IMG/VR virus record: IMGVR_UViG_3300012348_000111
Coordinates: 32,001-96,000 of that record
From: a virus
Length of the DNA: 64,000 bases
Strand: one strand, 5' to 3'
Under the pieces are notes generated by a model. That model ran no database searches, had not been told where the DNA came from, and was given only the letters and a program-made list of their open reading frames with translations. Of the stretch, positions 5,608 to 27,121 are shown one piece after another (the first letter of the stretch is position 1; each line of letters begins with the position of its first letter). The position numbers were made by a program, and so were the translations under genes.

Positions 5608-8600
5608 TTAATTATCAAGGTCATCTTCGTTCAACTTTTCTATTTTTTTATCACTGATATTTCCCATTATACTTACTTTAGGTACAAATGGCAAATCTTG
5701 ACCATCCCATTTGTTACCAGATTTAGAAATATCTCTTCTCTTTTTTGTATAATTAGAAATTAAATTATTGATTTTTTCATTTGTTTCTTTATTGTCTTTA
5801 CCTAATGCTCTATTTATTCTTTGTTTTTCTCTTAATACTTTTATTTGTTTTTTAAATTGTCTTTCAAGAGAAGGTAAAGGTAATCTAGAAGGCATTTTTT
5901 CAATTTCATAATCTTTTTTGAATCTAGTTTGAAGATTATTACTATATGTTTTAGGCATATAATCATTGATTCTTCTGTTATTAAATTCCATTGCATCAGG
6001 ACTAATATCTACACCTCTTAAACCAAGATATTCAATTGCACCTACAGCCAATGCTGGTAAACCAGCAAGAAAAGGATGTGTTTTATCCCAATCTATTTTA
6101 GATTGATTCCAACGATAATAAGGATCCATATTAGTAAAATCATCAAGGTCCTTAAAGTATCTTCCTAAAATACCCACTGGTCCTGATAAAGCACCAAACA
6201 GTTTATCAGCGATACTAATACCGTTACTTTGTTCAATATAGTAAGTGTAAACAGCTTCGTTCATACCCCAAAGAGTAAACGCACCTTCTACTTCGTTTAC
6301 TATACGTTTCATAAAGTAACAAGCATAGTCTGCCCAATCAGCTTCTCCATCTTCTTCACAATTTGTTGCTTTCTGAAGAGCTATTAAAGTATTTACCATA
6401 GCATACCATACAGCAGCATTTAATGTTCCTTTAACTACTCCACCTTTAACTGCTTGAGATGACGTTCTATAAGCAGCAAATACATTTCCATTATAACGAT
6501 AAGAATCTCTTATCAATTGGGTAAATGCAGACCAAGAGCCTTCTGTTTCAAAACCAGCACCATAGTGAATAGTCGATCTACCGTAAATAGATTTTATATC
6601 ACCTAACACCCATTTCTTTAAAAATAGAACTAATTTTCCTAATGTATATCTGTTTGCTTCTGGTTGTGACATAGAATCGTATACACCTTGAGATCTTCTT
6701 ACAGCAACATAAATTTTATTTCTTACAAATTGAACTAGGTTGTCAAAGTTTTCTCCAAGTTCTACATCAGGTCTAGGCTGTAAAATACCATCTTTAATTT
6801 CAAACGCATCTTTTAAAGTAATAGTTTGATCTGAATCTTTTAATTTAACTCTGTATTGATTTAGATAAGCAAATCCAACCTGAGCTGCTATTTCAAATTC
6901 AGTATATTCTCGTATAGTATTTACAATCGATAAAACATCTCCATACTTTCTAAGACCAGTGTTGCCTGCTTTTTCACCTTGAAAGAAACTTTCTTTTTGT
7001 TCTACTCCAAAATAATCTAAAAGTTGTAAAGACTTAGGTTTGTTTCCTAATTGCCCATGATACAAAAAGAAATCTTTAGAAGCCATAGTAGCGTCTATAG
7101 TTCCTTTACGTAAACTACTAAGAGTTATACCATGACTTACGACATTTATAAGATTTTGTTTTAAACCTGTTACTAAGTTCTGAGGAATAGATAATAAGTT
7201 ATACCCTAATGATTTTCTACCCGCACTTGCTGTAGCCATTCTACTTATAGCATTAAAAGATTTAGATAATTTATCAGTACCTTTTAAAGACTGCCCGTAG
7301 AATAGTTTTTCAATCATTTTATCTATTTGGGTTTTATCTGATTCTGCAGTTGTTTTTTGACTAGCACTTAATACAACAGCTTGCATTTTTCTTAATGCTC
7401 TAAATTGATGCGATGCTCCTCCATAGTTAGCAATAGCTCCCAAGATATCATCTGATTGTTTAGATACGTCTAAAGGTTTTGCAAAACGCATAAAGATTTT
7501 TCTACTTTTAGAAAGATTATCAGTACCATAATCTAATTGAGAAAAATCAGATTCTTGTTCACCATAGCTTTCTTCTATATCAACATCTTGATCGCTTCTT
7601 GCTTGCCACCAATTTTTAACATTAGCCCGCCAAGAGCTAAAAGGATTACGTCTAAAACTAACAGCATCTATAAATCTATCTCTTCCAGATTTAAGTTGAC
7701 CTGGAATAACATCTCCTAATCTATCTTTAGCATAAAGACCCTTTTGGTTTTCCAAATGAAGACTTCTTAAATCATTTACAATAGACTTTTGATTATCTGT
7801 TAATTTAGAATAATCTTTATTAAGGTAAGGTCCACTTGTAACTTCTTTAAATTGTACTTGACCTTGTTTATAATTAGGATTTCTAAACTTAGGATTAACA
7901 ACAGCTCTATACCAATTGAATCCTGGTTGATTCTTTTCTACAAAATCAGGATTATTAGGTCTTGTTACACGCCAAACAAATAGTGGCTCATATACTTGTA
8001 CCATTGTTTGTGTATCGCTATCCCAACGATTCTTTAATATGTGATTATCTTTATACCATTGAGAATTAACATATTGTTGGTGAACTTGTCTATTAAGTTC
8101 TTCTTCTGTTATACTTGGATTCTTAGATACTATTTCAGATCTTAATTCATTTTGAATAGTTTCTTTGGTTTCTGTATAGTAAGAAGATACTGCAGTAGAT
8201 TGCAATTCGTCTAATTGTTTAAATAAAGGAAGAAGCTTGGTTTTTATATCAGCATCTAAAGGACTTCCCTCTTTCATCAATTGTTTGATACTTTCAATAC
8301 GTTGTTCTATTTCTTTAGACTTTGCAATAAGTTCTTTAGAATAATTAGAAGGTATATAGACACCACTTGTGTCTTTCTGACCTTTAAGTATGTTAAAGAG
8401 TTCTTCGTATTCTTTGGAGATATCCCCCCTACCTTTTAAATAGTATGAAATACCATCTAAGATTCTTTGTCTCTGATCGTAAAACTCTTGTTTATATGTA
8501 ATCCTTACGTTAATAGAACTCCAAGCATCAAAAACTTCTTGAGCTACTCTTCTTTCTTCATCTGTAGTAGCTTTACTTAAATTGTTTTGATAGGCTTCAA

Positions 8601-11496
8601 ATTGTTTTTTATATTCAATTTCAAAAGCTTGTCTTGAAGCGTCTGTTAATTCATAAGAAACTAACTCTTTTGCTTTTTTATCTTTCTTCCACTCAATAAT
8701 AGCTTCTGCATCTTGTAATGCTTTACCTGTTTTCTTATTACCTTTAGAATCATAAAGTCTCTCCATATCATCAAGTTCATATTGAAGAGTTTTAATTGAT
8801 TCTATAATAATAACATCATTTAAAGAATTACCATCAAAGTTACCTATACCTATTTGTTCTCTAAGAGAGTTTATTTTAGTATAGATTTCATTTCTACGTA
8901 TAGCGATATCTTCTGGGAGAGATTCTGATATTTGATAATACTCATCTGTAAACGGTCTTTCAGTATAATTTTTATAGAAATCGTTTATTTTCTTAGTAAG
9001 TTCTAGTTTTTCACTTTGTTCTGTAGCTTGAGATAATGCAAACTTAAGTTTAGTTATTTCGTTTTGAAGAGCAACTGTGTCTGTTTGAGTGTTTAAAGCT
9101 AAAACTTTTATTTTCCTAAGTTCATTTTCTTCTACGTAAAAATAATCTACTTCTCTAGTAACAAAGGAGTACATCTTATGCCTGTCTATAACAGCTCCAA
9201 ATGTTTCTCCGTTTTCTTTATTAATTCTTTCTTGAATTTTTTGAAGACGATTATTCATATTTTGTAGTTCAGGAATAACACCTTGCATTCCTTTTAGAAT
9301 ATAATCGGCTACAATTCTTACTGTAGGAGTATCTGTTAAGAAAGCACTATCAAAAGATTGTTTAAACCAATTGTTCTTGCTTTTTGGATCTAGAAGTAAA
9401 TTTTTTATGTCTTCAGGACCTTTAGGTAATTCGTTTAACCTTTTATTAATTTCTTTTATTTTTTGAGTTTTTGCTTGAGCAGGTATATTTTCTTTTTCAA
9501 TTTGTTTAATTTGATTTTTTAATTCAAAAGTCAACTCATCTATACCATTTTTAATACCAGCATAAAGTTCTTCACTTAAAGGTATTAGAGTACCTCTATT
9601 TGATTCTTCTTTAATAATATTAATCGTATCTTGAATTACTTTAATATTATAGAATACTAAATTGTTGTTTCGTTTCTGTCTGTCTTCAGTGGTAATTGCA
9701 TCTATAGTTTCCCTTACTCTTTCAGGAAACATATTTTTTAAGGCATTTATTTGTTTTTCAAAAGCTTCAGCTTGTTGATTTGCAAAATAAAGTGCTGATA
9801 ATTTAATTTGAGAAGGTAGTTCATCGTTTTCTTTATTTTCTCTTATCCTATGAACGACATTTCTTAAATGAAGATTCGATGTTGTTAGATAGTTAGCAAG
9901 CTCGTAGTAAGCTTCTGCTACGTCTTCTTTAGTTACAAGATTTTTAATTTTCTCTAAAGACTTTGCAGATTCATCTAGAAGTTTACTTTCTCCTTTTAAT
10001 CTTAATTTTTTAGTAGAGAAACGAATAGCATTTAAATCTTTGTCTGTTATTTTATCAGCTAATGTTTTTACTTTTTCTCCAAAAGACTGTTGTTCGTTAG
10101 TAGGTAAAAGTTCTATAGCTTCTTTAAACATTCTTCCTTTATCTTCAGAAGTAAAACGAGAAAACATATATTCAGCAAACTCTGGACTATATTGTTTTTC
10201 TATTAAATCTACTTCTTCTTTACTTAAAAGACTGTCTACTAAGTTACCAATGTTTGTTTTTTCACTTACTTCAAATGAAAAAAGATTTTTAAAATAGTCG
10301 TATATTTTTTGCCAGATAGTTTTAGAATCTCTATTTCTATACTCTACATCAGCTTGTTTTCCTAATTCTGTTGTTATTACCTCTTCCCAGAATGAATCAC
10401 TCAATCCATATTCAGGATATAAGGCCTTTACAATAGCATAGGACGAACTTATTGGATTGTCCTTATGTAAGTCTTCAATTTCTTTTTTAAGTTCGTTAAA
10501 TAGCTCAGGATTGTTTTGTCTAATACTTCTTACTAAGATGTGACCAAATTCATGCCAAGGTGTTTCACTTGTTATAAGGTTCGGATTAAACATTATTTCT
10601 CCAGTAGTTAGATTGATTTTAGCTACTTGATCTAAATAAGGATTATAAGACCAAGTTGTTCCTTTAAATTTAGTGCTTAGGAAATTTATTACTTTACTAA
10701 ACTTTTCAAATTGAGGATTATTTACAGCAAGTCCTGTATGGAATCTAGAATCAAACCATTGACCATCGAAAGGTAATACTTCACCATCAACAACAATAGT
10801 ATTAGATTCTTTCATTAAATTTAAGAAGTCAGCATCTTGATTAGCTAATGCTTCAAGAGCCTGCATTGCTTCTATTTCTGCATATAATGATTCTTCTTGA
10901 ACTTCATCTATAACTTCAATTAGTTTTTCATAATATCTATTGTTAACTGTAAGAACAAGTTCGTAACCACCATCTTCCAAACTTTCTAGTTTTGCTACTA
11001 CTGGTTCGTGAGTAAACCCATAGGTTTTATTTAGATTTGTTGCAATAGCATATGCATACCCTCTAAAGTTTTTATATGATTTATTTTTAGTGTCACCTCT
11101 AAATGTTTTATCAGTAGGTTTTATAAATACTCTATATCCATCTATTGTAACTGATTCTCTAGATTCTAATGGTCTTATTTCCCTATCAAAAATTAATCTT
11201 TGAATATATTTAGATTTTTGTGCAAGACTAAGCTCATTGTACTCTATATTGTTTGATAATTCTAAAATTAAATCTTTTACTTTTTCTTGCTGTAAATATT
11301 TAGAAATGATTTGTTCTTCTACTTGTTTAGAGTACATAGTAGAACGCATTTGTTGAGAAACAAAGTTCTTAAATCCTTCTATATCTTGTTTATTACCTAA
11401 AAAATTACCAGCAAACTCAAAAAAATGAGATTTAAAGTATTCATTAAACTCTGATTGAGAGTATTTTTTATTATTATATGTTATTATGCAAGCCAT
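5608..11496 (-). CDS. Large ejected cargo / polyvalent protein with zincin-like domain
   Basis: 1962 aa; WHEFGH...EE zincin motif near 10540-10557; helical body; hydrophobic C-terminal segments; lies downstream of the virion RNAP as in crAss-like phages. Confidence 0.75.
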   Translation of the reverse strand: MACIITYNNKKYSQSEFNEYFKSHFFEFAGNFLGNKQDIEGFKNFVSQQMRSTMYSKQVEEQIISKYLQQEKVKDLILELSNNIEYNELSLAQKSKYIQRLIFDREIRPLESRESVTIDGYRVFIKPTDKTFRGDTKNKSYKNFRGYAYAIATNLNKTYGFTHEPVVAKLESLEDGGYELVLTVNNRYYEKLIEVIDEVQEESLYAEIEAMQALEALANQDADFLNLMKESNTIVVDGEVLPFDGQWFDSRFHTGLAVNNPQFEKFSKVINFLSTKFKGTTWSYNPYLDQVAKINLTTGEIMFNPNLITSETPWHEFGHILVRSIRQNNPELFNELKKEIEDLHKDNPISSSYAIVKALYPEYGLSDSFWEEVITTELGKQADVEYRNRDSKTIWQKIYDYFKNLFSFEVSEKTNIGNLVDSLLSKEEVDLIEKQYSPEFAEYMFSRFTSEDKGRMFKEAIELLPTNEQQSFGEKVKTLADKITDKDLNAIRFSTKKLRLKGESKLLDESAKSLEKIKNLVTKEDVAEAYYELANYLTTSNLHLRNVVHRIRENKENDELPSQIKLSALYFANQQAEAFEKQINALKNMFPERVRETIDAITTEDRQKRNNNLVFYNIKVIQDTINIIKEESNRGTLIPLSEELYAGIKNGIDELTFELKNQIKQIEKENIPAQAKTQKIKEINKRLNELPKGPEDIKNLLLDPKSKNNWFKQSFDSAFLTDTPTVRIVADYILKGMQGVIPELQNMNNRLQKIQERINKENGETFGAVIDRHKMYSFVTREVDYFYVEENELRKIKVLALNTQTDTVALQNEITKLKFALSQATEQSEKLELTKKINDFYKNYTERPFTDEYYQISESLPEDIAIRRNEIYTKINSLREQIGIGNFDGNSLNDVIIIESIKTLQYELDDMERLYDSKGNKKTGKALQDAEAIIEWKKDKKAKELVSYELTDASRQAFEIEYKKQFEAYQNNLSKATTDEERRVAQEVFDAWSSINVRITYKQEFYDQRQRILDGISYYLKGRGDISKEYEELFNILKGQKDTSGVYIPSNYSKELIAKSKEIEQRIESIKQLMKEGSPLDADIKTKLLPLFKQLDELQSTAVSSYYTETKETIQNELRSEIVSKNPSITEEELNRQVHQQYVNSQWYKDNHILKNRWDSDTQTMVQVYEPLFVWRVTRPNNPDFVEKNQPGFNWYRAVVNPKFRNPNYKQGQVQFKEVTSGPYLNKDYSKLTDNQKSIVNDLRSLHLENQKGLYAKDRLGDVIPGQLKSGRDRFIDAVSFRRNPFSSWRANVKNWWQARSDQDVDIEESYGEQESDFSQLDYGTDNLSKSRKIFMRFAKPLDVSKQSDDILGAIANYGGASHQFRALRKMQAVVLSASQKTTAESDKTQIDKMIEKLFYGQSLKGTDKLSKSFNAISRMATASAGRKSLGYNLLSIPQNLVTGLKQNLINVVSHGITLSSLRKGTIDATMASKDFFLYHGQLGNKPKSLQLLDYFGVEQKESFFQGEKAGNTGLRKYGDVLSIVNTIREYTEFEIAAQVGFAYLNQYRVKLKDSDQTITLKDAFEIKDGILQPRPDVELGENFDNLVQFVRNKIYVAVRRSQGVYDSMSQPEANRYTLGKLVLFLKKWVLGDIKSIYGRSTIHYGAGFETEGSWSAFTQLIRDSYRYNGNVFAAYRTSSQAVKGGVVKGTLNAAVWYAMVNTLIALQKATNCEEDGEADWADYACYFMKRIVNEVEGAFTLWGMNEAVYTYYIEQSNGISIADKLFGALSGPVGILGRYFKDLDDFTNMDPYYRWNQSKIDWDKTHPFLAGLPALAVGAIEYLGLRGVDISPDAMEFNNRRINDYMPKTYSNNLQTRFKKDYEIEKMPSRLPLPSLERQFKKQIKVLREKQRINRALGKDNKETNEKINNLISNYTKKRRDISKSGNKWDGQDLPFVPKVSIMGNISDKKIEKLNEDDLDN

Positions 11497-12128
11497 ATTT
11501 GATTATTTTTTATTTTATAAATTGTTGTAGTTGAAACATTAAACTTATTGGCTAACTCTTTTACTGGTTTATTAGAACTTCTAATAAAAGAAACTTTATT
11601 CCAATTCAATTTAGCAGAATTATTATTTTCTCCTTTTTTAGATTCTGATAAATCTTTGGCTCTCTTTTGAGCAGCTAATTTAAGGTTTAATTTATGTTCT
11701 TCTGAAAATATTTTTCTCTTACCAGATTCAGACATTTTATTTTTAGTTTCTTCTGAAACTGTAAATCCATAACCTCTTACAGCTTTACCTTTTCTTTTTT
11801 CTGACATCTTTTGTTTAGTTTCATCTGATGCTTTTAAACCATAATTACTTTCTGCAATTAATCTAATATTAAACTTATTACTATACTGGTCTAAAAACCA
11901 CTGTTCTAATTTGATACAATATTCAGAAGGACAAGTAGCTAACACTTTAAAATCTATATTCTCAATTCCATATTTGTTTACAAAGTTTTGTAAGAGTTTG
12001 TTTACATGAAAATTAGACCTTAATTTATCAAAATGTGTTTTCTTTCTTAAAGAAAGATTAGTTGCAGAGCCTATATAAACTCTATCATCTATTTTAGAAA
12101 ATATTCCGTAAACTCCTGAATTTAACAT
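11484..12128 (-). CDS. GIY-YIG homing endonuclease with NUMOD3-like repeats
   Basis: SGVYGI...VYIGSA..L..R...H; E.W; S.ETK.KMSE repeats; C-terminal HTH. Confidence 0.9.
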   Translation of the reverse strand: MLNSGVYGIFSKIDDRVYIGSATNLSLRKKTHFDKLRSNFHVNKLLQNFVNKYGIENIDFKVLATCPSEYCIKLEQWFLDQYSNKFNIRLIAESNYGLKASDETKQKMSEKRKGKAVRGYGFTVSEETKNKMSESGKRKIFSEEHKLNLKLAAQKRAKDLSESKKGENNNSAKLNWNKVSFIRSSNKPVKELANKFNVSTTTIYKIKNNQIWLA

Positions 12129-12913
12129 ACTCTATCGATTTTACCAGTTTCTATTAATCTGTTTTCTATTTGCATAGAAGACTTACTTATAATAAATTGT
12201 CTAAATTGCTCATAAGTTCCATATTTAGCAAATTCACTATTTTGAAAAGCCATATAATCTTTGAAACCTTGAATATCAGCTTTAGATGAAAGTATGTAGA
12301 TTTGTTCTGGTTCAAATACTATATATTGATGAGCAAAATCTATATCCCCTACTATTCCATTATCAGCAAGTTTATCTATAGTTCTCAGTACCGCATCTCC
12401 TTGTCTATCCTGAGCCTGGGGATTATCAACTAGTTTTAAATTTTTAGCATTTAAAATCGCAGAAAAAACCTTTGCTGTTTTAACTGCATTGTATTCTTCT
12501 AAAGATTCAAACTGACTAAAGTCTATAGAACCTTCTGCATAAAAATCTGCAGTTTTTTTACTATCAGTAAAGTAAATTCCTTGGGTAGATTGTTTTGTAT
12601 TTTTACCAGCTTGGTTAATATCAAAACTATCAAAGCGACCATCAGGTGTTCCATGATAAACTATTTCTTTTACTTGGCTGGTTTTAAAAATAGTAGAAAG
12701 ATATTGCATGTATTGAGCTTTAGTACCAATAGCTGCAAGGTCTGGTGACTCTTTAAATACACTATCAATAGCTTCCATTTTCCTTTTAAATGAATCTATA
12801 ACATCTTTATTTTTACTAATAGATGTAGCAAATTCATTTTTATTATTAATAAAGTATTCTTTAAATTTTTCTTCAGAATACTGTTTCCCTTTATATGTTA
12901 TTATACAACTCAT
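12122..12913 (-). CDS. ADP-ribosyltransferase-like (ART-PolyVal type) cargo module
   Basis: IVYHGT..FDSFD...GIYFTDS...A..YA...YIVFEPEQI motifs of polyvalent-protein ARTs. Confidence 0.7.
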   Translation of the reverse strand: MSCIITYKGKQYSEEKFKEYFINNKNEFATSISKNKDVIDSFKRKMEAIDSVFKESPDLAAIGTKAQYMQYLSTIFKTSQVKEIVYHGTPDGRFDSFDINQAGKNTKQSTQGIYFTDSKKTADFYAEGSIDFSQFESLEEYNAVKTAKVFSAILNAKNLKLVDNPQAQDRQGDAVLRTIDKLADNGIVGDIDFAHQYIVFEPEQIYILSSKADIQGFKDYMAFQNSEFAKYGTYEQFRQFIISKSSMQIENRLIETGKIDRVC

Positions 12914-14339: not shown

Positions 14340-14359
14340 TTTTATTTAAATTAATATTA

Positions 14360-14390
14360 CAAATATAGTTACGAAGTAAACTTTTAGCAA
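14360..14390 (-). promoter_or_regulatory. Bacteroidota-type promoter for the GNAT/ART/large cargo genes
   Basis: TTG-N20-TATATTTG. Confidence 0.7.
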
Positions 14391-17300: not shown

Positions 17301-20300
17301 ACAGAAGATACAATCGCACTTTCCATTACTGTTCTGTCTACTAAAGCGTCTAATAAGTATTGTAGTTTACCATCTTCTTTTATTTGAATTAAATCTTTTG
17401 TTGCTTGTGCAGCACCTTTACGGGATAATTCACCTACGATAAATTCTACAAGCTTTTCTTTATTGTCAAGTTTTTCTAAGAATTCGTTTGAATCGTATTC
17501 TACTAAGTTCTTAACGTAGTTTCTATAAAGTTCATATGCTTCTAATTCAGCATTTGTAGTTGCATCTTTGTAGATAAGTTTTCTTAACTGAGAAGAGAAT
17601 ATATTTTGGAAAGATTCTTTGTTTTCAACTATTACTTGTTCTTTAAGATATTTGATTTCAATAATACCTGGAGCACTTGGTGCAGTATCTACTTGACCAT
17701 CTTTAAATAAATCAATAGCTGGAACTGTTTCAGCAATCTTAGTTCCACTACTAAACACACCATAGTCTGCTCCTGAAGCATAAAGCTTAAATAAAATATC
17801 AGCTGCTCTAGGATTAGTTACTGCCTCTGAAGGAAGTAAAGGTTTAACTGAGTACTTATGGAAGATAGGAATAGAAGGACCAAATATAGACTGATTGTTT
17901 CCTGCATACTGAAGTTTCTTTACACTAAACTTAAATTTAGGTTTTTGGTTTAAAAGATTATCTAATTGTCTTTGAAGCATAACTGCTTCATACTGATTAG
18001 CATTCTTTAGTTGAAGATAAGTGCTCCAAATATTATTTTGGCGAGTAAACTCTTCTTCCATATCTAAAGTAATACCTGTAGACGTTGCATAGAATCTTCT
18101 AAAGAAATCCATAGTAGCTACAGACGCAGCGTCTTGTGCTTTAGAATCTTTATCTTTAGTGTAAGCGTCTCTTACTTTATCGTAAGCTGATGATTGAGCT
18201 GTTTCAGATACTACTGGATTATCATTAAATACTAAGTAAGAAAGTTTAGTAGGATCTTTAGGCAATACATTAATAGGAAGATTATTTTCTATTGCGTATT
18301 GTTGAAATGCTTTTTCTTGAGCATAAGAATCGTTTTCTACATTGTTTAAAGCAGCTACAGTAGTTCTATCCATATTGGTATATGTACCATAAGCATTCCA
18401 TGCAGACAAACGTTTCTCGATATCTTTAGCGTTTTTATAGTAGTAAGGATGATTAAAGAATAGTTTGTGTTGCTCTACACGCATTACAAAAGAATAGAAA
18501 TGATACTTAGCAAGTTGTTCGTTTGACAGATTGTATCCAGCTAAAGTGTCTTGACTTACTTCTACGTTGTTATTAAGATACTCGTTAAACTTAGAATAAA
18601 CTTCTTGAGCATAACTAAGTTTTAAGAAAGCATCTTCAAGTGTTGTGTTAGCAGGAAGTTCTTTAAGATCATTTATAAGACTTTGTTTTAAATCAGGACT
18701 GTCGATAATTTTTTCAAAGTAAGCAAGTTTTACATTTTCAAGTTTAGATTTAAATAAATTTTGATTAACCTTGCTATTTTGAGTGTCTATTTCTGATTTA
18801 AGAATAGGAAGAATGAATTGTGAAAATAAACGGAAGTCTATTCTTACTTCATTTTCTTTAGTAAAAGTGTATTCAATGTTGTCTGATTTAGCAAGACCTA
18901 AGAACTTTCTAGCTGATAGATCTAAACCAATACCTCTTGTTGTACTTTTACCTGATAGACGATTTAATTCTTCCACACCACCATTAAGTAATCCTACTAT
19001 GTCAGCATAGTGTTTCATGCTTGACAGAGAGTCAATGGTTTTTTCTCCATCAAATCCGTCTTCAATACCTAATAAGTTAACGATTTCAACTTTTCTAGGT
19101 TTACCGTTTTCAACTATTCTATTACCAGCTACATTAAAAAGATATTTTAATACCCAAGATCCTCTAGCGTTGGTATTCATTGCTTGATTCAAATGTGGTA
19201 TTTCTTTTTCTACATCTTCTAAAGTTTTATAGTTGGTACTATCATTCAAGATAGATAGAACTTTAGTCATGTAAGTATGTTGGTTAACACTCCATATTTG
19301 CTTTCCTACAGCATTATAACGCATGTCATTAGCGTATGTAGGGTTAGCATCTATTTCAAGATTTAAAAAGTAATTAACAGCACTTACTTCGGATTTAATT
19401 TTACCTGTTTCAGTTTTGTGTTCTTTACTTATTAAACCTAAAGGAGTAAGCATAGGTGTTCCTACATCAGAAAGAGATTTAAGTTTAGTTCTAATTAAAT
19501 TTAAGTTTTGAATTACTGTTTCTGGTTTTTCAGTTCTTAATGACTCCAGACCTAAAGAAGTATAGTTTAAACCTAAAGCTTGTAATTGTAAATAAACTTG
19601 ATCATAAAATCCTCTTAACGCATCAGGATCTCCTGTAGGAATGGATGGTGTCTTTTCAAACATACTAAAGAACTCTTCAGTATTTAATGCATAAGAACCA
19701 TTAGTAGTCAATACTTTAAATGGACCAGCCTCTGTATAGAAATCAGAATCTAACTGACTTCTTAATTGTACAGCATCTAATGAAAGTGCTTTAAGAACTT
19801 TAGTTTCTGTAATATTACCTTTGTCGTCTCTTTCTATTTTTACAGTAGAACCGTCTATGTAAGGCATAGTAAAGAGATTAAAGAATTGTACTTTAAATGC
19901 TAAATCTGTAATTCTTGTTATTGTATTATCAGCTTTAGGTAAGTAATCTAAGAAGGTATTAAATTGAGGAAACTTAACAGCAACTTCTTTGATTTTATTG
20001 TACATTTCATTGTACGTATTTAGTCCTGTTAATTCTCTTTGTAGAATAGTCCAGTTGCTTTCAAAATCACCAAGTAATGCAAAACCTAATACGGGATCAG
20101 TTACTTTTTCAGTTCCTTCATATCTAGGTAGTGTTCGTATAGCATTAATGATTACATCACTAGCCATATCTTTTTGAGACATTTCCTCTATAGATTTTTC
20201 AAACTCACCTATACCTTCATTCTCAGGTTCGTTAAGTACTTCATCTATAGCATTAAGAATGTTTGTAGACTTAATTTTATTGTCAAAAAGAGTAGAGTTA

Positions 20301-23300
20301 TTTTTATGAAAGTCTAAGATAGTTGCAATATTAACTATCTTTAGAGCTAAGTGATCTACTTTTTCAGCTTGATTAAAGTCATCTGGGTTCTGCTCAAGTA
20401 TTTCATATTCTTCTTGATATACAGTATCTAGATATTTTACTACGTTTTGATAGACTGTCTTTACTTGTTTAGGATTAAGAAGTACGTTTACTACACTTGC
20501 GTTGTAAGGCTTAAGGATAGCATTTGCAATATCTACAAATAAGCCATCAAACTCTTCTATTGTTTTTTGTGTTTCTGTATAAGAAAGAGCAAGAGGTTGA
20601 TCATTCTCATCTAAGATAACTAGTTTAGAAGAGTAAAGCTTTTTAAAGTAAGCGTTTTGTTCGTTACGTTTATAACGAGTAATGTTTCCTTTGTAAAGCT
20701 GATCAAAGTATTTATCTACTGTTTTTTTATCAGAGATTAAGTTAGTAATGAAGTCCCAAATCTTTTGAAAGATAGATTTAGTCTCTTTGTATTTTGCAAT
20801 CTCAGAAGGTATTGTTTGTCCTCCTGTTAAAGCATATTGACGGAAAGACTCAGCAATCTTTTCTTCAAGTTCCACAAAAGGTAAATCTCCCCATATCTTA
20901 CGTGCTTCAGAATAAAGTTTTTCTTTCTGATCACCATTAAGATATAATTGAGAAAACTCATGCCATGCTTCGTGATAAGCTTCTGCATAGTTAGCACCTT
21001 CAAATAATTGAATACCTGCTTTAGACCATATAGCATATGCTTCTGGATGAGCAATGGTAGTATCAAATATAAAAGGTGTATTCTTAAATATAGGATGACT
21101 TTCTACCCAAGCTTTAGCTGCTTCGTTTTCTTGTTTGGTTATTTTGTTAGAAAGTGTTCTAGCTCTTTTTAATGAATTAGGATCTATACCTGCGTCTTCA
21201 CCTCTACCTTTTATTTGAGAATTTGCACGTTCTATTAAACTTCTTCTTTTAGATACTGGTTTATTTTCTACTACAGGTTGAGTAGATTGTTCTAAAGCAG
21301 CTAGTTCTGCGTCGTACTTATCGTCTATCTGCTGACTTGTTAGGAACTCATTAAAACCCTGGTCAATAAATTCCGTAAACTGAATAAAACTTCCTTTAGT
21401 AAATCTTAATACTTTATTATTATTTACTTTAGTAATAATTGCTTTTCCTATCTGTGCATTACTCATACCTTTAATACGAGCTAGTTTGATAAAGTCATTA
21501 ATAGCCTTTAATCCTTTTTCATACTCTTCTTGTATTTCAGAATCAGACCAATCCTTGAATACAGAATTGGGATCTGTTTCTCTATCAATTTTAGCACTAT
21601 TAACGGTTACAATTACTCTAAGTCTTACACTGTTTGATTGTTCTTTTTGTCTTCTTGTTTCTATCTCAGCTTTAGCGTCTATAGATTGAGTAGATTCTTC
21701 TTTAGCTAAAGGATCTACAATGTTTTCTTCTACATCTTGAACAGACTTAGATGTTTCTGGTTGAGTAGGAACCATAGGTAAAGGTTGTTCAGCCTTTAAG
21801 GTTTTTTGCCAATCTTTTTTAACAGTGGCTCCAAAGTCAGAACTTAATACAAATTCTTTATATGTTTTGAACTCTTTAATAGTAGGTTGACCATTTACAA
21901 ACATAATTGCTTTGAATGGTTGTTCACTATTAAGTCTATTTGCAAATAAAGGTTTACGTATTTCTGTTTTAGATAAAAGTTCTTTTTGAGTAGACTTACC
22001 TATTACTTTAGCTTTTCCTTCTGGAGTAACAGCTTTAATATTAAGTTTATCACTATCTCTATTTTTACCAATAAAGAATTGACCTTGAGGAAAGTATCTT
22101 AATGTTTTATTTTTTCTTTCACTAAAGAAATTGTCAGCTATAAGTTCTAAAAACTCCTGCGGATCTGTAGGAAATTCTTTAGGAAGAGTTCCATTATTAA
22201 ATGCTTCAACTAGGTTAAAAAGATTACTACCCTCTACTTGAGGTAAGTCTATACGACTATAAGGATAGATAGCACCTTCTCTTTCTAGATAAACTGCTCC
22301 CTTTTCAAGAGTATATTTATTTCCAAATGGTGATTCTCTTTCTATAGTATCTGCTATATGAACATATACTTTTGATTTATCGTTTACTAAGCCAGCTAAA
22401 GGTACCGCTTTAGTCGTAGATGTTCCTTCTGTGCCAGTAATTGTAGCTAACACAGGAGTGTTGTTATTAGTAATTGCTGTTACTTGGTCTTTAGCAGGAC
22501 CTGATTTTAAAGGTGTAATTAACGGTGCTCCTGTTTCAGATGTACCTATATAACCTTCAGGAGTAAAGTAAATTACTTCTCCTTCTTTATTTGTAATTAT
22601 AGTTAGAGCTGCTCCTTGATTATTTACAGCTGCAGGGTTTTTAGCAAAAAAGTCAATAAAAGCTTGATCTACTATTTTGATACCATTAAAAGTAAATATA
22701 CTTTCTAGTTCTTTTTTCTGTTCTGCATTAAGTGGTTTCTTTTCGTTAATAAAAGATTCTACTCTTCCAAATCTTTCTTTAGATAGAATAGTTTTTAAAG
22801 TATTTAAAGGTAATTGAATTAGAATAGCAACATCAGCATTTGCACCACCTCTTATTTTATTATCTATTACTTGAACAATATTTAATGCTCTTAAATTGAA
22901 TGGGTTTTCTGTTAGTCTATCCTGTCTATCTAATTCAACAATGTTTAACTGTAAAGTATTTTTATTTACAGCTTGGGTTTTATTGTCTTCTTGTTGATTA
23001 AGTTCGTTTTTATGATTAACGTTATTCTCTTCTATTTCAGATTCTGTAGGTTTACTGTCTGAAATAGTATCTCCTTCTTCTTCTTGTTTATCAACTTTTT
23101 CTTGTTCTTTAGGTGTTAGGTTATTTTTCAAACCCATCATACGAGTTTGAAAGTCTTCTAGCATTACTACAGGAAGAAAAGAAGTTCCTTCTAAACTAAA
23201 GTTAGGCTCATTAGAATAAAGAGAATCAAAAAACTTTGTAATTGCTTTCTCTTCACCTGGAAAGAATCCTAACATTGCTGCTTCAGCTTCAGCTAAAGAT

Positions 23301-26300
23301 TCTATTTCGGGATTATTTATTAGGTAATCAAAGAAGTCTATTCTTACACCACTATTGAATTTACTAGTTTCTACTTTTCTATCTTCTTCAGATTCTAAAG
23401 GTACTAACTGATCTTCTAAAGATTCCTGAGTTCTTAATCTTTCGTTTCTAAATTGATTATAAATATCTTCATTTAATGGTCTTTCAGAAACTACTACAGT
23501 TTTTTCTTCTTTGGGTTCTTTACTTGATGCAGGAGTAAATCCTCTTTCAAAAGGTTTTTCTTCTTCAGTTGGTTTTGATTTTTCTTCTTTAGGTTCTTCT
23601 TTAGGTTCTTCTTTCTTCTCTTCTTTTTTACTTTCTTCAGTTTTAGAAAGTTCTTCTTTAATTTCTTTATCTGTAACAGGTTTGATATTAGCTTTATCTA
23701 GAATAGATTTATTAATATCTTTTATTACTGTTAAAGATTCTTCTGGAGTAAGACCTTTAGTAGAAAGTTCATAAAAATTATTAGCATATTCTCTATATGC
23801 TTCTAGTTGTGTTTTTTTGTTAGGGTCTGTTTCTTTTGATGCAGCATGTCTTTCTAACATATTACCTAACAATAAACGTTGAGCATCTGTTAAATGTTGA
23901 TGTGCATCTGCTTCTAACTGACCAGATTCTAATTCAGCTTGAGATAATTCAGCCGATGTCATTACAGCAACCTGTGCATCTTTAGTTTCTGGATTAGTTA
24001 AGTTAAATGAACCTTCAGCTATAGATTGATCTCTATCTAATTTCTTTCTTGTTTCTATTTCACTATTTATAAGATCAATTAAATCTTGTTCATAAAAATT
24101 TTGAAGTTGTGGTCCTGATGTTGGTACAAAAGGTGCGTTAATAGCTTCTTGTCTTTTAGATCCTTTATATTGTTGTAAGAAAGGTATAAAGTTTGTTTTT
24201 GCTAATTCGAGTTCAAGAAGTGTTAATTTTTCAGGAGACTCTTCTAGTAGTTGTTGAAAACCATCTAACCTATCTGCAACTGTAGCCTCTACTTCTGTTA
24301 TAAACTTATCATATTCAGCACTTATAAAGTCTTGTCTTTCATCTTCTGGAGATACTAGAACTCTATTTACAGCTGTTTGATTTAATGTGTTTACAAGCGT
24401 TGTTAGGCTATTATCTGAACTAGTGGCCGTCTTAGCTTGTTTAGCAAACATATTAGAGATAATGCCTTTCTTTTCTTGTTCAGTAAGACCTACGTATTTT
24501 TCAATTCTTTTTTTAGAATTAAGAACAACATCGCTAGCATCTGAAAGTTGTTTTTCGTAAGCTGCTATTTGTTCAGGTGTAAAAGTAGAAGTATCAATAG
24601 AAAGTAAATCTTCTATGTCTTCTACACTATTAAAGTAATTGAACTGTGCGTCTCTATCGTCTAATAGTGTAGAAATATTCTTTAAAGAGTTTATATCTGT
24701 AATAGAGTCTAATCTTGTTTTTAATCCGTTTACAGCTGCTGTTCTTTCTACAGCCTGTTCTTTGGTTAATTTACCGTTTTGAACTTGTTTGTTAATAAAC
24801 GAAAGATATTGTTCAGGATTATTAGCTATATCCCATCTGGCTTGACTTCTTCTAGAACGAGAATCAAATGCTGCTGGAACACCAGAAATAAACAATGAAG
24901 GAATAAATCCACTTACAAATGTTTCTAATCCATTCTGTAAAGTAAGATCGTTTGATTCTTCTACTGTAAAGTCTTTACTTGCAGCATACTTATCTACAAA
25001 GTAATTACCTAGTAATGAAAATTCTTCTTCTAATGATTCCTGAACTGCACCAGATAAGGTTTTTCTAATAGCTGATGGTGCTACAAGTAAAGCAGCTTTA
25101 GTTGGTGATATTGCGTTTTTGGGCAATAGTCCTAATAATACATCACGATTGTAAGTCATTCGTGAAAAGTTAGTAGGATCTAATTTACCAGCTTTCTTAA
25201 GTAACCCGTCTAAAGGACCTAAACTTCTATCGGCTTTAAAGAAATCAGTATCGGGAATTATAGTTTCTGATAAAGCTTCTACACCAGATCTAAGCAAAGC
25301 TACATTACGAGCATCTCCATCATTTTTAAAGTTGTTTCTTTCTTCTGCATAAAATCTAGGAAATGTAGTAGCGAATGTATTACCAAAAGTAGATATCCTT
25401 GGAGCTACTTCTTTTAAAAATGTTTTTTGAGCAGTAGTAGATAGTCCAGCTGACTTACTTATATTAGACCAAGAAAGATTCATTCCTCTACCTGCAGCAC
25501 CTACACCTCTACTTAACAGAATTGTTTGAGCCACATCAATAGCTATAGGAAGTGTTTGTTCAGTTGCTGCTGATAAGTTCCAATGACCTTCTCCTTTTTC
25601 ATCTACCCAATGTACATTAGATACATATATAGGATTGTCTTGAGAATCTTTAATTACTTCATTAGATTCTATTAATGAGTTTTTATTTAAATCATTTACT
25701 CTACGATACTGTGGAGGAGCAAACGATTTAGCACCTAAGTTAAATCCAAATGCACCTACTTTATCTCCTGTTAAAGCTGCTATACCTGCTACTTGATTTG
25801 TAGCATTAGAAAGCATTTGTTCACCACCTCTATATGCAATACTTTTAGCTTTTCTAAGAGGGTGTTGATACCAGCTACTTGTCGCTAAATCATTATAAAG
25901 AATTTCTGATTTTTCTTTCTTTACTTCTTCTCTATATAGTTCAGGATAAGATAGCTTGTAAAATTCTTTTTTGTCCTGAAGTGGTTCAAGCTTTTTACTT
26001 AGATCTTTAGTGAAGAGTAGGTTTTCTTCAAGCTGTTTCTTTTGGTTTAAAACATTTTGATTATTAGGATCTTTTTCAAGTTGTTGATTTACTTCAATTA
26101 AAGATTGAGATAGTTCTTGTTCTTTATTTTTAGCAGCTACACCCATTAAATTAGTGTAGTTGTAGTTTATGTTTGCTAATTCAGTAACATATTCTTTTTG
26201 AGACTGTACACCTATCTTACCTCCTATACTTTGAGTAATAGGATTTACAGACATAAATTTTGCAAAAGTACTAGAACTAAATATAGGAGAAAGTTCTAAA

Positions 26301-27121
26301 GAACTATTTTTAACAGCATTAAGATTTTCAGTATTATATACAAATGACCCTGGCACATAAGACTGAACATCTAACATATCAGTTAAAAGTTTTTGTTTAC
26401 TTTCAGTATCGTTAGGATCTATACCTATATTGTAGGCAAAGTTGTACGCATTACTGGTAGCATTAGCTTGATTAATTTGATTAAGAAAACTTTGTTTTTG
26501 GTTTTTATCAGTACTTTCTAAAAACTTATTAAAGTTTTGTTCAGCAAAACCATAAACTTTTTTATCATTATAATATCTAGTTAAATCAGTATATTCTTTT
26601 TGAAGTTTTTCTCTTGCTTCATCAGATAATAGTCCTGAACCATATGCTTTTTGAAAATAAGTTTTTAGTTCTGTTAATGCGTTTAGATCACCTTCTTCTA
26701 ACTTACGACTTAATACACCAGCTACTGTTCCAAAAGAAGATTTAGTTTTAGGATCTAAAGATATTTTATCAAGATTGATAGTTTCAAAGTTTCTATCTTG
26801 AGTACCCATAAGTAAACCAGACCCTCCTATAGAACCACTTAAACTTTCAGTTCTTGTAGCAATTTTTTTATTATTAGGATTAGATAGTAACCCTTGTTGA
26901 TTGTCTACTAAATAATTTTTTTCTAATATATCAGATATACTTGAAACATAATCATTTTGTTTTATGGGCTGTTGTAGTGATTGTCTATTGTATTCTGAAA
27001 TTTGATTTATTTCATTGATTCCGCTAACAAGTCCTAATCTAGATTGTTCAGCTGTTTTACCTGTTTCAGCAATTGATAGGGCATCAATTTTTTGTAGAAA
27101 TAAACTTTTATCGCTTGGCAT
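14384..27121 (-). CDS. Giant virion-packaged RNA polymerase polyprotein (crAss-like, phi14:2 gp66-related) with zincin domain
   Basis: 4245 aa; AIRIPGQG followed by GSDYDIDKLF (DxDxD catalytic motif, ~16856-16870); upstream Lys motifs (KLQYAG, HKYS, SGTK); YHEAWHE zincin at ~20956-20980. Confidence 0.88.
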   Translation of the reverse strand: MPSDKSLFLQKIDALSIAETGKTAEQSRLGLVSGINEINQISEYNRQSLQQPIKQNDYVSSISDILEKNYLVDNQQGLLSNPNNKKIATRTESLSGSIGGSGLLMGTQDRNFETINLDKISLDPKTKSSFGTVAGVLSRKLEEGDLNALTELKTYFQKAYGSGLLSDEAREKLQKEYTDLTRYYNDKKVYGFAEQNFNKFLESTDKNQKQSFLNQINQANATSNAYNFAYNIGIDPNDTESKQKLLTDMLDVQSYVPGSFVYNTENLNAVKNSSLELSPIFSSSTFAKFMSVNPITQSIGGKIGVQSQKEYVTELANINYNYTNLMGVAAKNKEQELSQSLIEVNQQLEKDPNNQNVLNQKKQLEENLLFTKDLSKKLEPLQDKKEFYKLSYPELYREEVKKEKSEILYNDLATSSWYQHPLRKAKSIAYRGGEQMLSNATNQVAGIAALTGDKVGAFGFNLGAKSFAPPQYRRVNDLNKNSLIESNEVIKDSQDNPIYVSNVHWVDEKGEGHWNLSAATEQTLPIAIDVAQTILLSRGVGAAGRGMNLSWSNISKSAGLSTTAQKTFLKEVAPRISTFGNTFATTFPRFYAEERNNFKNDGDARNVALLRSGVEALSETIIPDTDFFKADRSLGPLDGLLKKAGKLDPTNFSRMTYNRDVLLGLLPKNAISPTKAALLVAPSAIRKTLSGAVQESLEEEFSLLGNYFVDKYAASKDFTVEESNDLTLQNGLETFVSGFIPSLFISGVPAAFDSRSRRSQARWDIANNPEQYLSFINKQVQNGKLTKEQAVERTAAVNGLKTRLDSITDINSLKNISTLLDDRDAQFNYFNSVEDIEDLLSIDTSTFTPEQIAAYEKQLSDASDVVLNSKKRIEKYVGLTEQEKKGIISNMFAKQAKTATSSDNSLTTLVNTLNQTAVNRVLVSPEDERQDFISAEYDKFITEVEATVADRLDGFQQLLEESPEKLTLLELELAKTNFIPFLQQYKGSKRQEAINAPFVPTSGPQLQNFYEQDLIDLINSEIETRKKLDRDQSIAEGSFNLTNPETKDAQVAVMTSAELSQAELESGQLEADAHQHLTDAQRLLLGNMLERHAASKETDPNKKTQLEAYREYANNFYELSTKGLTPEESLTVIKDINKSILDKANIKPVTDKEIKEELSKTEESKKEEKKEEPKEEPKEEKSKPTEEEKPFERGFTPASSKEPKEEKTVVVSERPLNEDIYNQFRNERLRTQESLEDQLVPLESEEDRKVETSKFNSGVRIDFFDYLINNPEIESLAEAEAAMLGFFPGEEKAITKFFDSLYSNEPNFSLEGTSFLPVVMLEDFQTRMMGLKNNLTPKEQEKVDKQEEEGDTISDSKPTESEIEENNVNHKNELNQQEDNKTQAVNKNTLQLNIVELDRQDRLTENPFNLRALNIVQVIDNKIRGGANADVAILIQLPLNTLKTILSKERFGRVESFINEKKPLNAEQKKELESIFTFNGIKIVDQAFIDFFAKNPAAVNNQGAALTIITNKEGEVIYFTPEGYIGTSETGAPLITPLKSGPAKDQVTAITNNNTPVLATITGTEGTSTTKAVPLAGLVNDKSKVYVHIADTIERESPFGNKYTLEKGAVYLEREGAIYPYSRIDLPQVEGSNLFNLVEAFNNGTLPKEFPTDPQEFLELIADNFFSERKNKTLRYFPQGQFFIGKNRDSDKLNIKAVTPEGKAKVIGKSTQKELLSKTEIRKPLFANRLNSEQPFKAIMFVNGQPTIKEFKTYKEFVLSSDFGATVKKDWQKTLKAEQPLPMVPTQPETSKSVQDVEENIVDPLAKEESTQSIDAKAEIETRRQKEQSNSVRLRVIVTVNSAKIDRETDPNSVFKDWSDSEIQEEYEKGLKAINDFIKLARIKGMSNAQIGKAIITKVNNNKVLRFTKGSFIQFTEFIDQGFNEFLTSQQIDDKYDAELAALEQSTQPVVENKPVSKRRSLIERANSQIKGRGEDAGIDPNSLKRARTLSNKITKQENEAAKAWVESHPIFKNTPFIFDTTIAHPEAYAIWSKAGIQLFEGANYAEAYHEAWHEFSQLYLNGDQKEKLYSEARKIWGDLPFVELEEKIAESFRQYALTGGQTIPSEIAKYKETKSIFQKIWDFITNLISDKKTVDKYFDQLYKGNITRYKRNEQNAYFKKLYSSKLVILDENDQPLALSYTETQKTIEEFDGLFVDIANAILKPYNASVVNVLLNPKQVKTVYQNVVKYLDTVYQEEYEILEQNPDDFNQAEKVDHLALKIVNIATILDFHKNNSTLFDNKIKSTNILNAIDEVLNEPENEGIGEFEKSIEEMSQKDMASDVIINAIRTLPRYEGTEKVTDPVLGFALLGDFESNWTILQRELTGLNTYNEMYNKIKEVAVKFPQFNTFLDYLPKADNTITRITDLAFKVQFFNLFTMPYIDGSTVKIERDDKGNITETKVLKALSLDAVQLRSQLDSDFYTEAGPFKVLTTNGSYALNTEEFFSMFEKTPSIPTGDPDALRGFYDQVYLQLQALGLNYTSLGLESLRTEKPETVIQNLNLIRTKLKSLSDVGTPMLTPLGLISKEHKTETGKIKSEVSAVNYFLNLEIDANPTYANDMRYNAVGKQIWSVNQHTYMTKVLSILNDSTNYKTLEDVEKEIPHLNQAMNTNARGSWVLKYLFNVAGNRIVENGKPRKVEIVNLLGIEDGFDGEKTIDSLSSMKHYADIVGLLNGGVEELNRLSGKSTTRGIGLDLSARKFLGLAKSDNIEYTFTKENEVRIDFRLFSQFILPILKSEIDTQNSKVNQNLFKSKLENVKLAYFEKIIDSPDLKQSLINDLKELPANTTLEDAFLKLSYAQEVYSKFNEYLNNNVEVSQDTLAGYNLSNEQLAKYHFYSFVMRVEQHKLFFNHPYYYKNAKDIEKRLSAWNAYGTYTNMDRTTVAALNNVENDSYAQEKAFQQYAIENNLPINVLPKDPTKLSYLVFNDNPVVSETAQSSAYDKVRDAYTKDKDSKAQDAASVATMDFFRRFYATSTGITLDMEEEFTRQNNIWSTYLQLKNANQYEAVMLQRQLDNLLNQKPKFKFSVKKLQYAGNNQSIFGPSIPIFHKYSVKPLLPSEAVTNPRAADILFKLYASGADYGVFSSGTKIAETVPAIDLFKDGQVDTAPSAPGIIEIKYLKEQVIVENKESFQNIFSSQLRKLIYKDATTNAELEAYELYRNYVKNLVEYDSNEFLEKLDNKEKLVEFIVGELSRKGAAQATKDLIQIKEDGKLQYLLDALVDRTVMESAIVSSVKNKVIRQKVNGAQRVQFPVSLMSDRKLKYYDLKDGKVTKAEIMISFSKLYYPLFNLEYNGSPIGELNAKGEPINPHTALKRLNEALNDPAFRKQYERQLNIVAIRIPGQGYNSIESFEIVEFLPEETGDIILVPDEMVVKSGSDYDIDKLFCYDPFIEADGSVMTNNLTPKEAFARKKQLALDIQTNKEIVKEYLEEKQNTLNEIEEFLKSKNISSVSEVYKQLKQLRAEKFEGDVEVDEEMDAKQMLLDKFKNGLSRKEILEKNLSKDQKAKLAERKAKLKNLSSILQDYSETKLSFRLQEANDALAEIYQELTDSKNELKAIRNRFSNNILFNMSDRLTNEEIFEDLITPNSISEIEKAADGLTKNPTNEANYTNIVNPNYQLYVFSLNTYKKALGTDAKNNVLHSILQKAKLTIVDKQANSRYVLPANRVEGNLTFEGTKDTKGKPISLVQGQMISAHVDIEKDDRIALINFNNVVTPIVNYATMLGTPFEAMVNLVNMSSEKGKDSLIAQYSKLNDFGSIMNIVEQIQDPTIKNIVQKSRSKFGYSEKKFINLTIGGLVEKYDTETILKGLFKENVISDVYRLGLFLEMKNQADKVRRLSANTDFDTLSPQNFESLRANDGELLKLKEEKFFEEEAFDKVIFESVVSPFQVQTSVLDKFVEIFPVSASKTVTDGIVKLHQQYAKKNKFLQYETLSRVFKNDFLYSMYINEVPNIIQYESLLDKRNSKNLKAQYEYLKKKLAEKKITSQNRIFDLVRFNTDEKSNFLRTGLKQNSFDYSVDFYREQFNQGFNYSHPQLDPVVDTQLIENMQTFFKNFAYAGILGSQLNKKFDSYLPLIPEQIYTYPMSTVLENFANLSEEEQRAKLSEFTKRFRENHPEFAKVKDINPDLNFYKDYVLSRPNITPSKSNGETITKVDEEVDTATTETQSTTPISIVSEQLDLSAEYNQAAQDSFMSIRNKNKKNKDNC

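Follow-up and report, generated by a model that had tools for sequence, protein, structure and literature searches.

Facing Terminal Cysteines in Phage Cargo Proteins: a Split Ejection Polyprotein Possibly Re-Joined by Disulfides

No phages are more abundant in the human gut than crassviruses, whose cargo, about 5 MDa of protein, is ejected in order. A stretch of 64,000 nucleotides of DNA from a crAss-like phage (IMG/VR record IMGVR_UViG_3300012348_000111, positions 32,001 to 96,000; the whole stretch is referred to here as the window) most likely encodes related cargo in several separate genes, and it raises the question of why proteins that are otherwise very poor in cysteine keep one at precisely those termini that face each other. 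The proteins concerned are an RNA polymerase protein of 4245 amino acids (aa), a small GNAT-like module, a small ADP-ribosyltransferase (ART) module and a protein of 1962 aa. A fairly probable answer is that the pieces of a split ejection polyprotein are linked again, head to tail, by disulfides and so form one thread. The terminal-cysteine pattern itself is general among Crassvirales and extends beyond them, while the two small enzyme links and two blocks containing homing endonuclease genes are specific to the window.

Cysteine Positions in the Window

All genes of the region (5608-27121) lie on the minus strand. The order of transcription is the 4245-aa open reading frame (ORF), a spacer of 44 nt, and then the 257-aa, 221-aa, 263-aa, 214-aa and 1962-aa ORFs:

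14384..27121, minus strand: 4245-aa first chain member, a crAss001 gp47-like part fused to a gp50-like part
14340..14383, minus strand: AT-rich spacer of 44 nt between the 4245-aa and 257-aa ORFs
13566..14339, minus strand: 257-aa GNAT-like module with type-A head MFCPNLSDP, GNAT-like insert and type-b tail KIIDKQCS before the stop
12910..13575, minus strand: free-standing GIY-YIG homing endonuclease 1, 221 aa (Pfam/PHROG)
12122..12913, minus strand: 263-aa ART module with type-B head MSCIITYKGKQYS (Cys3), ADP-ribosyltransferase domain and type-b tail GKIDRVC before the stop
11484..12128, minus strand: free-standing GIY-YIG homing endonuclease 2, 214 aa (Pfam/PHROG)
5608..11496, minus strand: 1962-aa last chain member, gp49/g065-like, with type-B head MACIITYNNKKYS (Cys3) and zincin motif HEFGH at aa 315

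The 4245-aa protein ends in KNKDNC, and its tail cysteine, Cys4245, occupies the final position (TGC codon at 14389..14387, then TAA); the only other cysteine is Cys3426, and there is no head cysteine. The 257-aa protein starts with MFCPN and ends with IIDKQCS, the 263-aa protein starts with MSCIITY and ends with KIDRVC, and the 1962-aa protein starts with MACIITY and has cysteines at 3, 1713 and 1726, none of them in its tail. These termini had been reported in a first-pass annotation of the DNA and agree with the translation, as does its statement that the GNAT and ART modules hold no further cysteine, their only ones being residues 3 and 256 and residues 3 and 263, respectively. The same annotation held that each C-terminal cysteine faces an M-x-C in the next cargo gene. 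This is directly so between the polymerase protein and the GNAT module, where only the 44-nt spacer intervenes and which is the only one of the three junctions without an inserted gene; at the other two, it had skipped over the homing endonuclease genes.

If the cysteines of the four chain proteins are placed at random within their own sequences, the joint probability of this arrangement is, by our arithmetic, about 1e-11. The 41 other ORFs of the window, used as a control, contain 1.13% cysteine, and a cysteine falls within the first 8 residues in 4 of them and within the last 10 in 3, mostly in Cys-rich proteins. Three upstream virion ORFs (551, 837 and 674 aa) contain no cysteine at all.

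The four proteins are most likely packed into the particle and injected, as suggested by their weak homology to crAss001 gp47, gp50 and gp49 and by the polymerase motif. The 4245-aa protein carries a zincin motif, HEAWH, at aa 2050 and the RNA polymerase motif DYDID at aa 3418; around residue 2100 it can be aligned with crAss001 gp47 and around residue 3300 with gp50, and the alignment of the 1962-aa protein with gp49 is weak. Mass spectrometry has detected gp47, gp49 and gp50 in crAss001 virions, where they form capsid cargo that would have to unfold in part in order to leave (PMC10172136). The 257-aa protein scores below the Pfam cut-offs for GNAT (PF13302, 21.2 versus 25.4; PF00583, 19.9 versus 20.7), while some of its relatives have precomputed PF00583 matches and are called GNAT by one source. 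The 263-aa protein matches ART-PolyVal (PF18760, 38.1 bits versus a cut-off of 31.2 bits). Its AlphaFold2 model (predicted local distance difference test score, 78.5) finds tankyrase/PARP catalytic domains and the RES toxin as top Foldseek matches, with E = 2.5e-4 and modest TM-scores of 0.3-0.5, and a long C-terminal helix (234-255) is predicted to be followed by a floppy, Cys-bearing end of 8 residues. No matches were obtained for the 4245-aa ORF and its virion neighbours in Pfam, for the DNA among GenBank phages, for ORF263 or ORF1962 in a protein search of GenBank phages, for the last 499 aa of the 4245-aa ORF in IMG/VR, or for ORF1962 in a sequence search of the PDB.

Cys3426 (window 16844-16846), the sole internal cysteine of the 4245-aa polymerase protein, lies four residues past DYDID (GSDYDIDKLFC), and its counterpart is not kept in phi14:2 g066.

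Terminal Cysteines in Relatives and Reference Phages

Lack of conservation in homologues had been named in the first-pass annotation as an outcome that would speak against a link between the termini, and it was not encountered. In five IMG/VR relatives found with the ART protein, all module junctions combine a tail cysteine with an M-x(1-4)-C head, whether or not an endonuclease is present. Each downstream ORF has its own ATG, and both TGT and TGC are used at both sites; this interchangeability indicates that selection acts on the amino acid. More than 25 contigs found with the head of the 257-aa protein contain an ORF of >3000 aa ending in ILKQIC, LSKNC or NFCGGA, followed by an ORF starting with MATCPN, MFCPN or MICPN.

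The cargo of cultured Crassvirales (crAss001, DAC15 and phi14:2 g067/g066/g065) is homologous to the window proteins and follows the same rule, the differences being that gp47 is fused with gp50 in the window and that the GNAT and ART links are added there. The only cysteine of crAss001 gp47 is residue 2339 of 2341, that of gp49 is residue 5, and gp50 has cysteines at 5, 1334 and 2404 of 2412; the arrangement in DAC15 is the same. In phi14:2, g067 ends in NTIC, g066 has cysteines only at 3 and 2179 of 2180, and g065 only at 3. The rule is also obeyed by cr3_1, cr4_1 and the cyanophage Lbo-JY46 (a Leptolyngbya phage), and by crAss002 once the over-long annotated start of gp33 is moved to Met33. 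The chain order read from the cysteines of crAss001, gp47 to gp50 to gp49, matches the colinear arrangement that the homologous parts have in the window. In both crAss001 and DAC15 the first chain member, gp47 or its homologue, is encoded on the strand opposite to its partners. This indicates that the signal acts at the protein level, and it excludes ribosome hopping, read-through or a DNA motif as the cause.

In crAss002, the annotated start of gp33 (L040:5270-5370; MVLDYS..) is probably 32 codons too far upstream, and Met33 begins MSCTPSNPKLDKL, a normal cysteine head. A GC-rich hairpin lies inside the 170-nt gap after gp32 of the same phage.

The pattern can be quantified in 277 metagenomic relatives of the two small modules. 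Their 144,903 residues include 484 cysteines, 435 of which lie in the first 8 or last 10 residues: 249 in the first 8, with 202 of these at position 3, and 186 in the last 10, with 90 of these being the very last residue. The 49 internal cysteines amount to 0.035%, compared with 1.13% in the window control. From 112 viral contigs, 85 distinct tail-to-head pairs were obtained. Among adjacent ORFs in 112 viral loci, both facing cysteines are present in 79 cases, neither in 108 and one only in 32 (odds ratio 49, p = 1e-28). The numbers of tails and heads are equal within each genome, the type of tail correlates with the type of head, and in every genome checked the first member lacks a head cysteine and the last member a tail cysteine.

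A literature search found no description of a terminal-cysteine rule for crassviruses. Neither the crAss001 paper (PMC10172136) nor the preprint on the phi14:2 polymerase (bioRxiv 10.1101/2020.03.07.982082) mentions cysteine in these proteins, and the latter presumes that fused polyproteins are cleaved, as opposed to split ones being joined again.

Split and Fused Forms

In several relatives the same parts are encoded as a single ORF (L003, L006, L007, L008 and P0211-P0222), and no cysteine is found at the internal borders of these proteins. L006 combines GNAT, scaffold and gp49-like part in one ORF of 2375 aa, and L003 carries the ART domain at residues 391-615 of 1796. The fused proteins have cysteines only at their very ends, apart from a conserved internal C-x12-C pair. 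The window itself offers the same comparison, since its 4245-aa ORF lacks cysteine at the fused gp47|gp50 border, whereas crAss001, DAC15 and phi14:2 are split at this point and have the pair. As fused forms lack border cysteines and split forms have them, the cysteine pair is present where, and only where, the polypeptide is broken.

Two very small ORFs consist of little beyond a cysteine head and a cysteine tail and contain no enzyme domain. These mini-adaptors (L050:7456-7725, 89 aa; L005:4558-4833, 92 aa) have the heads MACTITY and MANCINK and the tails YFLSCKL and IEKKCS.

The C-x12-C pair of gp49-like proteins, at 1713/1726 in the 1962-aa protein, is the sole conserved non-terminal cysteine site in the chain. 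It is kept in gp49-like relatives at 2125/2138, 1678/1691, 2053/2066 and 2551/2564, and it takes the form C-x8-C (1324/1333) in L002. In the ART family, the centre of alignment A1 (columns ~110-390, corresponding to residues ~90-195 of ORF263) is hypervariable and of very different lengths, and the flanks, that is, the head up to VKDIVYHG and the part from VVFEPEQIHILG onward, are near-identical. The variable centre resembles a polymorphic-effector cassette.

A Proposed Disulfide-Linked Thread and Its Alternatives

The preferred explanation is a single functional ejection polyprotein that would be encoded in four pieces in the window: the gp47+gp50-like polymerase protein, the GNAT module, the ART module and the gp49-like protein. 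Every piece with a successor has a cysteine within its last 1-2 residues, and every piece with a predecessor has one at residue 3. In the particle, each tail would dock on the next head and the two terminal cysteines would form a disulfide, giving a nearly linear thread of about 6,700 residues from which only one or two residues ahead of each head cysteine and a few beyond each tail cysteine would branch off. Packing of such a thread would keep the stoichiometry fixed, the thread could be pushed through the tail in order and partly unfolded, and the reducing host cytoplasm would then open the links and free the polymerase and the enzymes. Other cysteines would be kept out of the chain so that wrong links cannot form. 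Passage through a narrow channel in the manner of a single polypeptide would account for both the extreme-terminal position of the cysteines and the purge of all others. For the phage of the window, we infer the bond, the ordered ejection and the release by reduction alike.

If this explanation is true, the chain accounts for a 1:1 stoichiometry of separately encoded giant proteins, for their fixed exit order and for the removal of cysteine elsewhere in the cargo. It also explains how the number of genes in this block can vary between phages (one, three or six) while function is kept, and it predicts that the polymerase and the ART and GNAT effectors are set free by reduction once they reach the host cytoplasm. 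Parts of this scheme have counterparts elsewhere. Polyvalent proteins of phages and conjugative elements, from which ART-PolyVal (PF18760) derives, are likewise injected multi-enzyme cargo with ART and acetyltransferase modules, but they are single polypeptides. In di-chain AB toxins, one disulfide holds the chains together and is reduced in the cytosol of the target cell, which matches a tether opened by the reducing target; their chains, however, are made by nicking a single precursor, in which the bond closes an internal loop, whereas the cysteines of the window lie at chain termini.

The only solved example of such a bond is found in the cyanopodophage A4 (Anabaena phage A-4L), for which cryo-electron microscopy resolves gp27 Cys1715 and gp26 Cys5 as a disulfide-bonded pair and shows the C-terminal helix of gp27 docking into gp26 (PNAS 2025, PMC12002296). 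According to the A4 GenBank record, these are the sole cysteines of gp27 (1717 aa) and gp26 (1114 aa). The signature matches that of the window, A4 having two adjacent ejection-protein genes, of which the upstream product has its only cysteine third from the C-terminus and the downstream product its only cysteine at residue 5. A4 differs in being a small podophage of T7-like size with one link, which the paper treats as a structural detail, while the window would have three links in a row, with small enzyme modules that carry both head and tail and with endonucleases in the junctions. Inter-subunit disulfides also occur in crAss001 virions, in tail and portal-vertex proteins (PMC10172136). The docking chain proposed in the first-pass annotation, into which new effectors could be plugged, is thus partly supported by the comparative evidence and the A4 precedent, although its authoring model had overlooked the endonucleases in two of the three junctions.

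Several points weigh against the disulfide thread. The ejection proteins of N4-like phages (Schitoviridae) are reported to be Cys-free, a depletion that has been explained by envelope passage (PMC11445570). They share with the window a giant ejected polymerase and extreme cysteine depletion, but cysteine is absent altogether, whereas the window keeps it exactly at the facing termini; since a similar polymerase is ejected with zero cysteines, the chain is not a general requirement. Discordance is found at 32 of 226 close junctions; most, though not all, of these involve a small inserted gene, the first non-cargo gene after the chain or a tail cysteine about 67 residues from the end. Common ancestry could account for part of the correlation between tail and head types. 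Finally, the two thiols could bind a metal, or could pair tail-to-tail or head-to-head.

Of the alternatives, one holds that the terminal cysteines link neighbours through a shared metal or other thiol chemistry, or tether the proteins to a capsid or portal component. It draws on two further difficulties of the disulfide thread, namely that the host cytoplasm and the habitat of the gut relatives are reducing or anoxic and that disulfides in crassvirus cargo are deduced purely from sequences. Metal or redox chemistry is also hinted at by ferritin-like and DUF5856 genes in cargo junctions of some relatives and by a DUF5856 gene in the window. A single cysteine per terminus would, however, supply just two ligands, and conserved His, Asp or further Cys residues are lacking next to it. 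The equal numbers of tails and heads per genome, and the lack of a head cysteine in first members and of a tail cysteine in last members, also disagree with this alternative, as does the tail-head disulfide of A4, and we regard it as unlikely.

Ferritin-like genes (PF00210) lie exactly between ORFs with tail and head cysteines in three relatives (L064:5342-5830, L089:6688-7176 and L117:4998-5492), and DUF5856 genes occupy the same kind of site in two (L058:6809-7159 and L114:5430-5780). The single DUF5856 gene of the window (35059-35439) belongs to the virion block and adjoins a Cys-rich ORF of 194 aa. A role of either gene as a redox or metal helper of the cysteine links is speculation.

In another alternative, the cysteines act within each protein, as an N-to-C disulfide, a processing or packaging signal, a lipidation site or a means of homotypic dimerization, and there is no chain. 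The GNAT and ART modules, with exactly one cysteine per end, could in principle close into rings, and ORF263 combines a tail of type b with a head of type B. This alternative leaves unexplained why first members have only a tail cysteine and last members only a head cysteine, and why cysteine is lost from fused borders; a signal peptide and a lipobox are absent, and the bond in A4 joins the tail of one protein to the head of another. It is accordingly rather improbable.

Homing Endonucleases in Two Junctions

Of the three breaks between the chain proteins of the window, two, the GNAT-to-ART and ART-to-1962 junctions, are occupied by the 221-aa and 214-aa ORFs. Both encode homing endonucleases with GIY-YIG, NUMOD3 and helix-turn-helix parts (PF01541, 35 and 31 bits versus a cut-off of 22.6 bits; PF07460; PHROG 314, E = 1e-23). 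The ATG of endonuclease 1 overlaps the codon of tail Cys256 (caATGTtcg), and its stop codon shares bases with the start of the following cargo ORF; the ATG of endonuclease 2 overlaps the codon of tail Cys263 (gtATGTtaa), and its 3' end extends over codons 1-4 (M-A-C-I) of the 1962-aa ORF. Among relatives, an endonuclease ATG lies over the tail Cys codon (A-TG-Y) in 16 of 22 cases, and 14 of 15 junctions with MxCIITY-type heads carry a GIY-YIG gene. Each endonuclease of the window is part of a longer stretch that is conserved at the nucleotide level:

12650..13695, minus strand: nucleotide-conserved block 1, the ORF257 tail (from ~aa 215), endonuclease 1 and the ORF263 head/scaffold (aa 1-87)
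11354..12324, minus strand: nucleotide-conserved block 2, the ORF263 tail (from ~aa 197), endonuclease 2 and the ORF1962 head (aa 1-47)

Block 1 has 82-90% nucleotide identity to L047, L048 and L049, and block 2 has 92% to L050 and L005 and 84% to L054; the flanks of both are without detectable DNA similarity. Tail, endonuclease and head are thus conserved jointly as one block, which is consistent with a mobile unit. The resemblance of the GNAT and ART tails noted in the first-pass annotation is real, with the motif [ILV][DEQ][KR]xC recurring before MxCIITY-type heads in relatives, and the two endonuclease-containing tail/head pairs look alike because each belongs to such a conserved tail-endonuclease-head block.

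Fused alleles without an endonuclease are found at the homologous site in L003, L006 and L007. The continuous scaffold of L007 reads ..QQYSAYLDTIFPGSTVKDIVYHG[ART]VVFEPEQIHILGNKQDIAGFKKFVA.., and FEPEQIHILGNKQDIEGFK is a stretch of continuous scaffold in an endonuclease-free relative such as this one. Compared with L007, each split of the window adds a Cys-ended tail of 23 or 40 aa, a head of 32 or 50 aa starting with M-x-C, and a second copy of the flanking scaffold segment. Heads of the form MxC(V/I)..Y.GK.Y also occur without an endonuclease in distant phages (Lbo-JY46, phi14:2, L055 and L059), which indicates that this head type is older than its association with the endonuclease. The putative mobile unit may either have made the breaks of the window or have invaded existing ones. 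Under the disulfide-thread explanation, these two breaks would most likely have arisen or spread by homing into a continuous scaffold, and the endonuclease blocks offer a possible mechanism for chain breakage and effector swapping.

A more specific proposal, put forward tentatively as a possibility that we hold to be somewhat less than even, is that tail, endonuclease and head form a mobile "split-and-staple" cassette. The endonuclease would enter a continuous polyprotein gene and bring along a stop, a start, a Cys tail and an M-x-C head, and the two halves would be re-joined by docking and a disulfide. If true, selfish endonucleases would have, in addition to introns and inteins, a third means of residing inside a coding sequence at little cost, and new effector modules would have a ready-made way into the injected chain. 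"Fractured genes", in which a free-standing homing endonuclease lies between the halves of a split intein, and the endonuclease-split nrdA gene of Aeromonas phage Aeh1 are similar in that an endonuclease gene separates the halves and extra terminal segments bring these together. The window differs in lacking a Hint fold or intein motifs, and docking plus a disulfide would leave two polypeptides; with the cysteines at the far ends of the extra segments, splicing chemistry is impossible.

Four processes at the nucleic-acid or splicing level were considered for the junctions and rejected. Group I introns do not fit, as the endonuclease ORFs leave no free sequence between themselves and the cargo ORFs. 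A split intein or trans-splicing is contradicted by the lack of Hint/intein Pfam matches, by the placement of the cysteines (final residue in the tail, third residue in the head), and by heads of 32-50 aa without an HN motif. Programmed bypass of the T4 gene 60 type disagrees with a gene of about 650 nt in two of the gaps, with the separate downstream ATGs and with the opposite-strand partners in crAss001 and DAC15. Creation of the tail cysteine by the endonuclease start codon is at odds with the majority of cysteine pairs, which have no endonuclease between them.

The broader alternative that the whole pattern is a by-product of nucleic-acid or translation events (ATG/TGY overlap, ribosome hopping as in T4 gene 60, an intein or intron vestige, or a recombination site) can point to the start-codon overlaps in the window and its relatives and to the junction of the polymerase protein and GNAT module, where TGC-TAA is followed 53 nt downstream by a TGT codon, but it is highly improbable in view of the many pairs without an endonuclease, the own ATG of every downstream ORF, the interchangeable TGT and TGC, the 1-3 residues that often separate tail Cys and stop, the opposite-strand first members, the distal, non-intein positions of the cysteines without Hint/intein matches in Pfam, and an Rfam search of window positions 11000-14800 that found no intron or other RNA family beyond one chance-level lncRNA match.

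In four relatives (L049:1535-5336, L046:668-5998, L068:328-4567 and L085:2434-5998), a cargo ORF has a tail-like cysteine about 67 residues before its end (..IEKDC, then KLKAEKGL...AKHGLVIPKN up to the stop). The next ORF starts with MYKNIKVEAEHNEL, has a CxxC at 42/45 and the peptidoglycan-related domains YkuD and PG_binding, and lacks a terminal cysteine; an MSC head follows. This arrangement has the look of a junction into which a cell-wall enzyme gene was inserted, and it is not an intein. A split-intein-like pairing of ..AKHGLVIPKN with MYKNIKVEAEHNEL was rejected, as the His-Asn junction is absent and one member has no cysteine.

Other Observations

A DUF6321 protein of 154 aa (window 33611-34075) ends in RRRWKC, and the next ORF has no head-cysteine partner. 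Upstream of this gene on the minus strand lies the 194-aa ORF (34471-35055), with 15 cysteines in CxxC-like spacing and no Pfam match; an ORF of 128 aa (34079-34465) separates the two.

In the contigs L015-L032 (about 10001-10186), a CPN-type head, MTPFCPNFSNKQVK, lies within a 68-codon open frame amid many short frames, and cr4_1 gp27 (L042:12437-12480) has an in-frame stop at codon 14. Together, these features suggest stop-codon reassignment in late genes.

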